This document shows, piece by piece, positions 15,366-21,813 of a DNA stretch of 64,000 nt. The position numbers and the translations under genes were made by a program. The notes under the pieces were generated by a model that worked only from the letters and a program-made list of their open reading frames with translations, was not told the DNA's origin and did no database searches. Origin of the DNA: Dictyostelium discoideum (Eukaryota); contig CM000151.3 in NCBI GenBank assembly GCA_000004695.1, positions 992,001 through 1,056,000 on the forward strand. The letters are read 5' to 3'. Within the stretch, counting starts at the first letter, position 1. Every line of letters starts with the position of its first letter.

Positions 15366-17301
15366 ATGATTGAAAGAGAATTTCCTGCTGAATTAAAAAA
15401 TAAAGAACAAGAATTAATTGAAATTGATGATAGAATTAATACTGTTAAAGAAATGTTAAATTCATTAAATAAACAGCGTAATTCTACTAAATCATCAACA
15501 TATCATATACCACACACTAATAATAATAATAATAATAATAATAATAATAATAATAATAATAATAATAATAATAATAATAATAATAATAATAATAATAATA
15601 ATAATAATAATAATAATAATAATAATAATAATAATAATAATAATAATAATAATAATAAACCAAAAAGAATATTTCATAAATTACAAAATGGTGAATTCGT
15701 TAAATTGGTTTGTAAATATTGCAGAAGATCAGATTTTGTGAGTGGACTTGGATTTTTAAATCATGTTAGAATTAAACATGGTTTTAGATATTCCACTCTT
15801 GACGAAGCCGCCGAACAAATTGGTGTACCAGTTGCTGATAGCGAAATTCCAAAAGATGATCCTTCACGTGAAGGCATTGTATTTAGATTTAAAAGGGGTG
15901 CCTATTCACCAAGTATAGCTTTTGAAAGAAATAGTGAAGAAGACAATGGTACATTCGATAATAATAATAATAATAATAATAATAATAATAATAATAATAA
16001 TAATAATAATAATAATAATAATAATAATAATACTGGCAATGATACAGATAAAAAAAAAAATAATAATGGTAATGATGCGGATGTAGATATGATCGATCTT
16101 AATGTAAATAGTAATTATAGTAATAATAAAGAGACAAATGAAGAATCTTCAGGATCAAGTAGATTTTATGTAAAGAAAAAAATTATAGTTGGTAATACTT
16201 CAACTCAAATTCATCCAGATTATAGAGGTCACGATAGATCAACTCATAAATGGACTGTATATGTTAGAGGTCCTCAAAATGTTTGTACTCTCTTTTTATT
16301 GTGGGGAAAAAAAAAAGTATTGTGTATGGAATGTTAACATTTTTTTTTATTTTTTATTTTTATTTAAATTAATATAGGAAGCAGATATATCATATTTTGT
16401 AAAAAAGATTTGGTTTTATTTACATGATAGTTTTGCACCAAATGATAAAGTAGAGGTTGTGGAGAGACCATTTAATTTGACTAGAAGGGGTTGGGGTGAA
16501 TTTCCAGTTAGAATTAGATTATTTTTTCATGACAAAAGAAATAAACCTATTGATATTATTCATAATTTGAAATTAATTCAATTACCCATCCAATATAATG
16601 TACCAGTGGTGGGTGGTGAAACTACAACGGAAATTGATTTAGATAGATTGTTCTTTGATAAAAGAGAAAAACAACAAAAACTTGATCAATTAAATAATAA
16701 TAATAATAATAATAATAATTCTGAAAATAATAATAATAATAATAATAATAATAATAATAATAATAATAATAATATTAATAATAATAATAATAATAATATT
16801 AATAATAATAATAATGATAATAATAATAGTAGTAATAATACCAGCCCCACCTCAAATTATTTAAATGAACCTCAAAAGATTGTAAATAATGATAAAGTTA
16901 GTGAAAATAGTAGTAACAATGAGGATTCTCAAAAGAATAAAGAGAAAGAAAAAGAAAAAGAAAAAGAAAAAGAAAAAGAAAAAGAAAAAGAAAAAGAAAA
17001 AGAAAAAGAAAAAGAAAAAGAGAAAGATAAAGATAAAGAGAAAGAGAAGGATAAAGAGAAGGATAAAGTTAAAGAGAGAGACAATAAAGAAAAAGAATTA
17101 GAAAATAATAGACCAAAAGATGACAGAGATAGAGATAGAGAAAAAGAAAGAGTAAGAGATAGAGATAGAGACAGAGAAAAAGAAAAAGAAAGAGAAAGAG
17201 AAAGGGAAAGGGAAAGGGAAAGATATAGAGATAGAGATAGAGATAGAGACAGATATAGGGATAGAGACAGAGATAGGGATAGAGACAGAGACAGAGACTG
17301 A
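15366..17301 (+). CDS. YEATS-domain protein, 5' part. Exons are 15366-16280 and 16378-17301; the intron is 16281-16377. It ends at a single in-frame TGA (17299-17301) inside an (RD)n repeat.
   Basis: The YEATS signature is split by the intron. Exon 1 ends ...[39 protein letters not shown]. Exon 2 begins [52 protein letters not shown]. The donor is GTTTGT and the acceptor TATAG. The frame is open for ~370 nt upstream of the ATG, so the true start or a 5' exon is uncertain. Confidence 0.7.
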
Positions 17302-17575
17302 GATAGAGACAGGGAAAGAGAAAGAGAAAGAGAAAGAGAAAGAGAAAGAGAAAGAGAAAGAGAAAGAGAAAGAGAAAGGGAAAGAGATAGAGATAGGGAG
17401 AGAGAGGGGGAAAGGGAAAGGGAAAGAGAAAGAGATAGAGACAGAGATGGAAATAGGGAAAGAGATAGAGGCAGAGATAGAGATAGAGAAAGAGAAAAAG
17501 AAAAAGAAAAAGAAAAAGAAAAAGAAAAAGAAAAAGAAAAAGAAAAAGAAAAAGAAAGAAATATAACAATAGAGA
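16925..17575 (+). repeat. A ~650 bp purine-rich (>90% A/G on the plus strand) GA/GAA/GAGA microsatellite tract encoding (KE)n, (RD)n and (RE)n. It contains the in-frame TGA.
   Basis: Direct inspection shows AAAGAAAAAGAAAAAG..., AGAGATAGAGATAGAGAC... and GAAAGAGAAAGAGAAAG... units. A ~75-nt stretch at 17321-17395 is pure purine. Confidence 0.85.
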
Positions 17576-20500: not shown

Positions 20501-21813
20501 AACAAAAAGAAAATCAACAAGAATCACCTCTATCACCAAATATTGAAACACCACAATCACCATCATTATCAACTGAGATGATAATTGAAGAGGGAGATGG
20601 AGATAATGAAATGGAAACAGAATCAATGGGAACTACAGATGCACCAAGTAGTCAACAATATCCAAACATTTTTTCAAATTTAGTTGATCCAACAATGCAA
20701 CCAGTATTACAATCACCATCTTATTCATCACTTTTACCAACTATCATCACAGTTGCACCAATTTATGGAAGTAGTAATAGTACTAGTAAAAAATATTCAA
20801 CCGATACATCAACATCTGAATCTGAATCATCATCATCAACAACGACCTCCTCATTATCATCCTCTTCCTCTACAAATGTAAATTCAAATAAAAAGATTAG
20901 AGGAAAATATAGAACTCGTAAAATTAGAGAAATGGAAAGACAATTACAACAACAACTACTATCCTCTTCAAATACAACATCATCTATTGGTAGTGGTGAT
21001 CAATTATTACCAACAACGACAACAGCAACAACAACAACAATAACAACAACAACAACATCATCAACAGGTGATAATAATGATAATGATAATAATAATACAG
21101 CAGATCAAGAATTTAATTATGATTTTCCATTAATTGAAACATCATTATGTCCATTTACACCTGAAAGGGTAAATGAAAAATTATTAAATTCAACAAATGG
21201 TAAAGTTAACAATAATACAAGTACAACCCTAAATAATAATAATGGTCAATTAGTACCAATTATATTACCAATGACAAAGAAAACGCCAACTTTATTCTGT
21301 AAATATTGTGGTTCAGGTCATCATCCTGATAGTTTTGAAATGAAACAAAAAGCATGTTCAATTCAGTATAAAGGTGTTTCCTATACCACTATCATTAGTT
21401 CATTTCCACAAATTGTAATCACTTATCCTCCAAATTTCGATCCAGAATCAAAAATGCCAAATCCAAATTCAATATCACCAATTAAATATATTTCAAATAG
21501 AACAATCAGTCAACCATTCAAAGCTGAAACTTTACCAATCGATTGGATTCAATTGGTTATGAAATCAATTGGTATACCAAGACTAAAGGATTCATCCTGT
21601 TCTTTTGATGCTGAGGAAATCATTTATCAAGCTTCAATTCTTTTCATGAGAAATTTAATTGGTGAAACTTTTCAAGTTTATCAAGAGGAAAGAGATAAGG
21701 AACCAAAAGAAGATTGTGTCATAAAATTAATGGTACCTGCTCATTTACATACTGCAATTAAAAATACTCCCCTATTTAATTTTATTAGTAATATTGCACT
21801 TTATAGAGATTAA
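17302..21813 (+). CDS. Probable continuation of the same YEATS gene. It shares the reading frame with 16378-17301, with no stop from 17302 to 21813 (track ORF 17716-21813, 1365 aa). The product is a large low-complexity Ser/Thr/Pro/Asn/Gln-rich protein with a conserved-looking C-terminal domain.
   Basis: The frame is 1 mod 3 on both sides of the TGA. Repeated peptide units (NIVNAPQSS x4, GDAPISPQPI-like x3, TPTPTT runs, Q50) are present. The C-terminal ~170 aa (KYCGSGHHPD...VIKLMVPAHLHTAIKNTPLFNFISNIALYRD) is non-repetitive. Confidence 0.5.
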   Translation, partial: DRDRERERERERERERERERERERERERDRDREREGERERERERDRDRDGNRERDRGRDRDREREKEKEKEKEKEKEKEKEKEKERNITIENAGNSTINNSNNSSVINSPTVVKKTVLPPRLGVHLSSISKKLKIKKEMEAQQVATIRKEREREKELKLQNNINNNNNDNNNNSNNNNNNNNSKTDKIKDADRLDRSVINQSNNNRSKTQNGSGDNNNNNNKPFVFNFDDSDLSDHPDYVITAKPDNIINTAVSPTKNKHHNSKRNDINNTTTITTTDKENITPQQSSAISDAPITPQPITAAPSESPLPMDYTIPPPPSTTTTTTTTTTTTSSSTIGDAPISPQPIVSSSSGINGAPITPPPQVSNLVNAPQSSSSSLSLSSSNIVNAPQSSLLPNIVNAPQSSSSSSSSSLNIVNAPITPITPSLSSSSLLLSPSRIKKTYDENELPLGFNDESLQKLLYKLVKKYPIITTTKQINTKSSYRASTTRDNWLKWTYGKQKLTEYRRSKKIRNYIKRKTQKDVSLISIMNWCRLNGFTPLTTHQESFYNLIDPFKNKTSDNFITTTNNNNNNNNNNNNTDTTTTTTTTTTANNGKHNDDNNTTSTNNSPNTTVTSTINDNVIGNNDSGMSDTPTSLHETTTTTTVSTPPIETPTPITKSISVITPISTTTTTPTPTTPTPTPTPTTPTTPTTTPTPTTPTPTTITTAAAPTPTTPITAPITAPTLLPQTQEQSKDFSNSAPNNNNNNNNNNNNNNNNNNNNNNNNNNNNNNNNNESKNHDGNENMVFEESYTDSALADEIDSVLNGLVSGDDNNSGQNENVESNLNGNENKKIHHEDEDDHVLLNHRSQNNVKVDNSSVATTEAKSTITTSSLVTSPPPPPPTTKTATATNTTTTNNIITQSPSINSMPNDHPMFDIENTFQQHHHHHDLITPMESIRSGLSSIIEQHHLISTSLPIIDGFVTPSSTIPTIKVSNNNSINNNGGSTNDISPQTSNSQLLSTPISPKPLQSLPTLPNIEKQQQQQQQQQQQQQQQQQQQQQQQQQQQQQQQQQQQQQQQQQQQKQQQQQKENQQESPLSPNIETPQSPSLSTEMIIEEGDGDNEMETESMGTTDAPSSQQYPNIFSNLVDPTMQPVLQSPSYSSLLPTIITVAPIYGSSNSTSKKYSTDTSTSESESSSSTTTSSLSSSSSTNVNSNKKIRGKYRTRKIREMERQLQQQLLSSSNTTSSIGSGDQLLPTTTTATTTTITTTTTSSTGDNNDNDNNNTADQEFNYDFPLIETSLCPFTPERVNEKLLNSTNGKVNNNTSTTLNNNNGQLVPIILPMTKKTPTLFCKYCGSGHHPDSFEMKQKACSIQYKGVSYTTIISSFPQIVITYPPNFDPESKMPNPNSISPIKYISNRTISQPFKAETLPIDWIQLVMKSIGIPRLKDSSCSFDAEEIIYQASILFMRNLIGETFQVYQEERDKEPKEDCVIKLMVPAHLHTAIKNTPLFNFISNIALYRD
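20356..20512 (+). repeat. (CAA)n of ~50 units encoding poly-Gln within the YEATS-gene continuation. Similar (AAT)n blocks lie at 15141-15275, 15518-15657, 15961-16030 and 19526-19621.
   Basis: These are pure trinucleotide runs lying in-frame in the coding sequence. Confidence 0.9.

Follow-up and report, generated by a model that had tools for sequence, protein, structure and literature searches.

A 64,000-nucleotide (nt) stretch of the Dictyostelium discoideum genome (assembly GCA_000004695.1, contig CM000151.3, forward-strand positions 992,001 to 1,056,000), referred to below as the window and numbered from its first letter, contains two open reading frames (ORFs) within 15366-21813 that are the halves of one gene. 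A single reading frame and a single block of base composition run across both ORFs and are cut by a TGA codon at 17299-17301. Judged from its sequence, the gene is predicted to be a YEATS2 orthologue; YEATS2 serves as reader and scaffold in the ATAC (Ada-Two-A-containing) histone acetyltransferase complex. An artefact or a trivial mutation of recent date, and not some new biological mechanism, most probably accounts for the TGA that interrupts the gene.

Two open reading frames of one YEATS2-type gene

The most direct evidence that the two halves belong together is a 3HBD (three-helical bundle) domain (Pfam PF22951, E = 2.6e-16, approximately 18664-18900) in the downstream ORF, which was missed in the initial annotation of this DNA. 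The YEATS domain (Pfam PF03366, E = 4.7e-28) is encoded upstream of the TGA, and the homologues bear both domains in one protein. Because the domains that flank the stop share one protein in the relatives, we concluded that the locus is one gene. The homology search was carried out with the conserved blocks only as query, leaving out the low-complexity sequence. Among the 120 best homologues listed, with only a handful of exceptions, PF03366 and PF22951 occur together in a single polypeptide 650-1080 amino acids (aa) long, and the named proteins in this set are "YEATS domain-containing protein 2"; homologue P0001 is a complete Trinity transcript ORF bearing both domains. When the 2116-aa conceptual protein, read through the TGA, was compared with seven homologues by BLASTP, five collinear blocks were observed, three before the TGA (coil, residues 1-35; C2H2-like finger, 102-173; YEATS, 264-399) and two after it (3HBD, 1082-1158; C-terminal domain, 1931-2116), with the stop at residue 613. 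A profile made from 40 homologues found the same blocks on the conceptual protein (E = 7e-91, 5e-23, and 1.5e-10).

The DNA between the TGA and the next ATG (17302-17715, 414 nt) has a coding-like GC content of 0.32, compared with 0.10-0.17 in the intergenic DNA flanking the gene. In its non-repeat part (17560-17715) there are no stops in the gene frame vs. nine and eight in the other two frames (shuffle P = 0.005). No AATAAA is found on the + strand in 17089-18072, that is, up to about 770 nt past the stop. All 1503 codons past the stop are intact, and the interruption is therefore young or harmless; the 4.5 kb that follow the TGA contain no further disabling change. The initial annotation had offered three options for the TGA: a sequencing or assembly error, a strain polymorphism or young mutation, or a genuine stop between two separate genes. 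The last of these is disfavoured by the collinear YEATS2 domains, the coding-like stretch 17302-17715, and the missing AATAAA. Under either of the other two it had expected a single protein of about 2100 aa, which agrees with the 2116 aa found here. The features of the gene, all on the + strand, are as follows.

15366-16280 (+): exon starting at the first in-frame ATG; coil, C2H2-like finger, poly-Asn tracts, and the start of YEATS (about 16152); BLASTP high-scoring segment pairs (HSPs) collinear with YEATS2 homologues
16281-16377 (+): intron, 97 nt, GT..AG, GC content 0.19, gapless spliced alignment
16378-16659 (+): second part of the YEATS domain (PF03366), with the LH-S-F...RRGWGEFP acyl-lysine pocket motifs
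16939-17559 (+): hexamer purine array of about 103 copies, the linker that holds the stop; KE, RD, and RE dipeptides
17299-17301 (+): in-frame TGA (gac TGA gat); T17299 is a pyrimidine at codon position 1 amid AGA units
17302-17715 (+): in-frame stretch from the TGA to the next ATG; GC content 0.32, free of stops, ATG, and AT-rich spacer
17716-21813 (+): rest of the frame (the "1365-aa ORF"); mostly low-complexity N, T, S, P, and Q tracts between conserved domains
18664-18936 (+): 3HBD (PF22951), Pfam match, collinear with the homologues
21271-21366 (+): FCK(Y/F)CG knuckle and the following helix; homologue alignment, and predicted local distance difference test (pLDDT) score of 90-93 in the AlphaFold2 model (model residues 1-30)
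21532-21789 (+): histone-fold-like C-terminal domain with three model helices; terminal sequence ...LMVPAHLHTAIKNTPLFNFISN
21834-21839 (+): first AATAAA past the terminal TAA, likely the poly(A) signal of a single transcript

The region is very rich in A and T; its coding repeats include AAT (poly-Asn) and CAA (poly-Gln), and its introns are short and AT-rich. The first in-frame ATG of the YEATS gene is at 15366. The 97-nt intron that the initial annotation had placed inside the YEATS domain (16281-16377) is in phase 0, and its spliced product aligns across the junction without a gap both to the human YEATS2 crystal-structure sequences and to Pfam YEATS positions 2-78 of 80; these gapless alignments fix the two intron boundaries exactly. 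From 16378 the frame (position mod 3 = 1) is open to the TAA at 21811-21813, and the TGA is its sole break, as had also been described. Translation gives 2116 aa on read-through and 612 aa when truncated at the TGA; the downstream ORF from 17716 (1365 aa) is in the same frame and ends at the same TAA. The GC content falls to 0.12-0.17 past 21814. ORFs on the reverse strand within the gene (17069-17590 and others) were rejected as by-products of low-complexity sequence.

Domains, C-terminus, and 5' end

In order, the conceptual protein has an N-terminal coil, a C2H2-like finger, YEATS, a charged KE/RD/RE linker of about 200 aa, 3HBD, low-complexity spacers, a CxxC knuckle, and a histone fold. 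All the YEATS2 hallmarks that can be judged from the sequence appear to be present except an uninterrupted polypeptide. The YEATS domain matches the human YEATS2 structures 6lsd/5iql with E = 5e-44 over 132 residues, with gaps of one and two residues only; among the other solved structures the values are about 1e-21 for GAS41/Yaf9 (GAS41 3.6e-22), 1e-10 for AF9/ENL, and 5e-5 for Taf14. The acyl-lysine pocket motifs (LH-S-aromatic ... RRGWGEF) are kept in the alignment with human YEATS2, whose first motif reads FFLHPSYKPND, and the family-invariant columns H, S, P-N-D, and G-W-G-E-F are all there; acyl-lysine binding is predicted. The N-terminal coil (15366-15470) scores 36.6 bits (E = 2e-13) against the 40-homologue profile and gives HSPs with P0052 and P0114. 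Between the coil and YEATS, the C2H2-like finger (15669-15887, +) is common to the protist YEATS2-like proteins P0001, P0002, P0003, P0087, and P0094, three of which carry a precomputed PF25909 match; neither vertebrate YEATS2 (P0052) nor P0114 gave a BLASTP HSP with it. The finger may be an ancestral module that animals have lost.

The C-terminus aligns with YEATS2 C-termini, sharing W(I/V)xxxxxxIG, a long central helix, and (L/V)xPxH(V/I)xxA.....DFLxN. Its AlphaFold2 model has a mean pLDDT of 73.7, exceeding 90 in the knuckle and over large parts of the long central helix and the last helix, and consists of the CxxC knuckle, a disordered loop, and helices at 88-99, 114-143 (30 residues), and 156-173. 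The model indicates that this domain is probably a YEATS2-type histone fold. YEATS2 and NC2-beta form a histone-fold pair in which the C-terminal histone fold of YEATS2 binds NC2-beta (bioRxiv 10.1101/2023.08.03.551787; PMC13631227), and the Dictyostelium domain would be the counterpart of the animal fold that pairs with NC2-beta/DR1. The initial annotation had likened the protein to ENL/AF9 and suggested an AHD at the C-terminus. The likeness does not hold, since the YEATS domain is nearest to human YEATS2 (5e-44 vs. about 1e-10). An AF9/ENL-type AHD was likewise rejected: Pfam gave no AHD match in 20401-21813 (E <= 0.1) or 21271-21810 (E <= 1), and a YEATS2-type histone fold is predicted instead. 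The FCK(Y/F)CG knuckle (21271-21366) is kept in most of the aligned YEATS2 homologues, is absent from the aligned vertebrate and mollusc sequences, and is covered by no Pfam family.

Exact look-ups of the 1365-aa and 612-aa products in the protein collection returned no match, and the best identities in the protein database are 42-58%, with none above 58%. A metagenome scan with a unique 30-mer beside the tract and a scan for loci related to the 3HBD were both empty. Searches of PDB sequences with the 3HBD alone and the C-terminus alone gave no meaningful matches; only YEATS-domain entries were matched, and for full-length YEATS2 no structure is deposited. The literature search returned no publication that describes a Dictyostelium YEATS2 gene or the stop at 17299.

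The 5' end of the gene allows two readings. Upstream of the ATG at 15366 the frame is open over 14997-15365 (+), 369 nt or 123 codons with no ATG, and contains no stops vs. 8 and 54 in the other two frames. The initial annotation had noted an opening of about 370 nt with no start, and its doubt about the 5' end is legitimate. Either this upstream frame is coding and is reached from an undetected 5' exon, or it is an ex-coding leader and translation starts at Met 15366. Consistent with the latter, homologue P0114 begins at the equivalent position, though P0114 may be partial. The alignment to the family profile extends upstream of Met 15366 (MIEREF..) by about 20 aa but gains only +1.8 bits, too little for such homology to prove an N-terminal extension. 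The sole combination of an ATG and a donor able to reach the open frame is ATG 14829 with GT 14839 (a 10-nt first exon), and acceptors at 15060, 15081, or 15090 would give introns of 222-252 nt with a GC content of 0.18-0.19.

Some further observations concern the same region. About 95 codons before the strong coil motif at 15366-15470 there is a weak second copy (15021-15110, +), which scores 7.6 bits with the family N-terminal profile. Before it, the leader at 14829-14996 reads, in the gene frame, ATG 14829, TAA TAA 14865-14870, TAA 14877-14879, a 35-codon open segment SDTSG(N)16GENDKQPFNILTNQ, and (TAA)x4 at 14985-14996, and the TAAs occupy places where CAA (Gln) codons are expected. They may represent a mutated repeat unit that expanded in an ex-coding leader, or sequence within the intron after the 10-nt exon. 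An unbroken run of 44 A (14663-14706, +) is found just upstream of the putative leader, and T-rich runs (14120-14160 and 14240-14270) lie farther upstream in intergenic DNA.

Origin of the in-frame TGA

When all six frames on both strands of the window were scanned for stops that split a long frame, only TGA 17299 had 80 or more open codons both before it (307) and after it (1503). This confirmed that the interrupted frame is real and more than chance in the window. The TGA reads gac TGA gat and the neighbouring units read gac AGA gat, as expected for the one-base AGA-to-TGA change proposed in the initial annotation. It lies in an array (16939-17559) made up of about 103 copies of a degenerate hexamer with an 83% match, in which about every second codon (AGA, GAA, AAA, or GAG) is one substitution short of a stop. 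A nonsense event is therefore likelier there. Before and after the TGA alike, the pyrimidines of the array nearly all occupy codon position 3; as coding evidence this bias is weak, since a hexamer array holds its phase without selection. Two TAT (Tyr) codons (17224-17226 and 17254-17256, +) stand where GAT is expected in the RD repeat and show a position-1 change from purine to T like that of the TGA. As for stop usage, TAA closes 30 of the 36 long open stretches in the window, with TGA in the minority.

We favour, tentatively and at not quite an even probability, a base-call or consensus error in the reference assembly. The error would be an A-to-T difference in an AGA codon of the repeat linker, and the real product would be the 2116-aa protein with Arg at residue 613. 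No dedicated mechanism serves to decode the TGA, and the interruption is very recent. From priors alone, a substitution error in the array and a real nonsense allele would seem similarly likely; the error is favoured because purifying selection acts on a conserved scaffold. The ATAC subunits Yeats2 and Zzz3 are reported to be apparently essential in mouse embryonic stem (ES) cells, where Yeats2 knockout is apparently lethal (PMC13631227). The one-gene architecture and the lack of signals for stop function are direct observations, whereas we infer that T17299 is an artefact and not a true allele. Several points weigh against this. The present evidence would fit an erroneous T and a true T alike. 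Typical sequencing errors in microsatellites are insertions or deletions, not A-to-T substitutions. The GAT-to-TAT changes at 17224 and 17254 are substitutions of this kind, present either as real variation or through the same error mode. The 5' leader also has further in-frame TAAs, and the gene may tolerate real truncating changes.

If the T is real, a single YEATS2 gene would carry a nonsense allele of recent origin, either strain-specific or polymorphic. This account is a serious possibility to which we give a lower probability than to an assembly error, and the evidence for one gene applies to it equally. It gains from the change being a clean substitution and not an insertion or deletion, from the two changes of the same kind 45-75 nt upstream of the TGA, and from the leader TAAs, which hint at earlier nonsense changes tolerated in the repeats of this gene. 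Loss of a conserved scaffold such as YEATS2 is expected to be costly, however, given the reported apparent lethality of the mouse ES knockout (PMC13631227); the 4.5 kb downstream have not decayed by any second disabling change; and the prior for a new A-to-T nonsense change in one given gene is presumably small. A real T would leave a 612-aa fragment with coil, finger, and YEATS and without 3HBD or histone fold, hence without NC2-beta pairing; the mRNA might undergo nonsense-mediated decay, and traces of full-length protein would be made only by background near-cognate read-through. Assembly error and young mutation, both put forward in the initial annotation, are thus the two leading explanations.

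The remaining accounts give the stop a function or remove it, and each has a low probability. Programmed read-through of a leaky UGA, yielding an abundant short YEATS reader and a rare full-length ATAC scaffold, is in our view unlikely. UGA is generally the leakiest stop, and near-cognate insertion of Arg or Trp would yield a sensible residue; the frame is undisturbed before and after the TGA, the coding signature is unbroken to 17715, and TGA is a minority stop here. The context is UGA-GAUAGA, however, with G at +4 and not the leaky UGA-C or UGA-CUAG, and no stimulatory structure is possible in the all-purine tract downstream, where a segment of 125 nt starting at the stop folds with only -0.5 kcal/mol. 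None of the 120 best homologues listed is split or stopped at the same place, and the stop occupies an arbitrary unit of a rapidly evolving repeat and has the look of an isolated substitution. The more specific proposal that a genuine TGA is kept as a leaky stop, giving mostly a 612-aa free reader and a small fraction of 2116-aa ATAC-type scaffold, is slightly less probable still. The 612-aa reader would then be excluded from the histone-fold/3HBD core, and the read-through efficiency would set the ratio of free to complex-bound reader. A stable split into a 612-aa YEATS protein and a 1365-aa 3HBD/histone-fold protein, the latter made from ATG 17716 by an internal promoter or re-initiation, is about as improbable as programmed read-through. 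ATG 17716 is present and the downstream ORF alone has both complex-anchoring domains, but between the ORFs there is neither an AT-rich promoter-like spacer nor a poly(A) signal, the 138 codons before ATG 17716 are open in the gene frame only, and the homologues are single polypeptides. Re-initiation past a 612-codon ORF is not expected.

Least probable of all is that the TGA is spliced out (donor GT at 17152 or 17068, acceptor AG at 17400 or beyond) or read as selenocysteine, which we consider extremely unlikely. The initial annotation had stated that no GT-AG intron could span the stop, the tract containing no GT. GT does occur at 17068 and 17152, with none from 17153 to the TGA, and GTAAGA at 17152 is donor-like, with in-frame AG acceptors present. 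Its conclusion nevertheless stands: the candidate introns would be at least 249 nt (249-333 nt or longer), with 89-90% purine, 7-8% T, and a GC content of 0.35-0.38 vs. 0.19 in the real intron, and would remove repeat codons only. A GC-AG intron across the TGA is impossible, as the tract contains no GC. Selenocysteine would need a selenocysteine insertion sequence (SECIS), and none was found in 17000-22900 (E <= 5) or in the window at the gathering score; in the Rfam scan of the gene region no other family matched.

Neighbouring features and relation to known YEATS proteins

Downstream of the gene, an ORF at 22827-23930 (+) encodes 367 aa and has no Pfam match; a signal-peptide-like N-terminus is followed by SSNSGS(E/Q)(S/G) repeats over about 250 aa and then by a Cys-rich C-terminus. 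Its GC content (0.39-0.43) is the highest in that part of the window, and the long ORFs in its other frames and on the opposite strand are a by-product. A tRNA-Gly (GCC) gene at 4180-4250 (-) is the only Rfam or ARAGORN match in the window. B-box zinc-finger ORFs are found at 10774-11631 (-) and 33934-35238 (-) (E = 5.6e-6 and 4.4e-4), an alpha/beta-hydrolase ORF at 41465-42604 (-), and an amino-acid permease ORF at 45711-47393 (+). None of the ATAC subunits GCN5, ADA2a, ZZZ3, KAT14, MBIP, WDR5, and NC2-beta is among the window ORFs scanned.

The closest known counterparts are human YEATS2 and Drosophila D12, an ATAC scaffold and H3K27-acyl reader, with which the conceptual protein shares the coil (K-E-x-E-I-x-x-I-D-x-R-I), YEATS, 3HBD, and the histone-fold motif ..P.H(V/I)..A.....DFL.N in the same order. 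It differs in length (2116 aa vs. 650-1080 aa for the listed homologues), owing to the Asn, Gln, Thr, Ser, and Pro tracts and the 200-aa KE/RD/RE linker. It also differs from vertebrate YEATS2 in having the C2H2-like finger before YEATS, common to the protist homologues, and from YEATS2 in having its frame cut by one TGA. AF9 and ENL (MLLT3 and MLLT1) resemble it in general layout, in that YEATS, in the N-terminal half, is separated by a long disordered stretch from a small conserved domain at the C-terminus; their YEATS similarity is far weaker, 3HBD is absent from them, and their AHD is unmatched here. GAS41 (YEATS4), Yaf9, and Taf14 share the YEATS domain; unlike this protein they are small, have a C-terminal coiled coil or ET domain, and lack 3HBD and histone fold. 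The interruption itself is like that of other reference-assembly genes with in-frame stops (errors or nonsense alleles), where a single stop lies between same-frame ORFs of one family that are otherwise free of defects, and nothing distinctive sets it apart from them.

In annotation, a single YEATS2-type gene model should cover both ORFs and carry a flag that the stop may be a sequence error or a strain allele; a YEATS protein next to an orphan 1365-aa protein would be the wrong model. A real stop would make the sequenced strain a naturally occurring mutant in which a YEATS2-type scaffold is truncated at the C-terminus. ATAC is usually regarded as a metazoan complex that yeast lacks (bioRxiv 10.1101/2023.08.03.551787). 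A complete YEATS2 architecture in an amoebozoan genome, with full-architecture relatives in other protists, is of modest evolutionary interest, and it offers a tractable non-animal system for asking whether an ATAC-like core exists.

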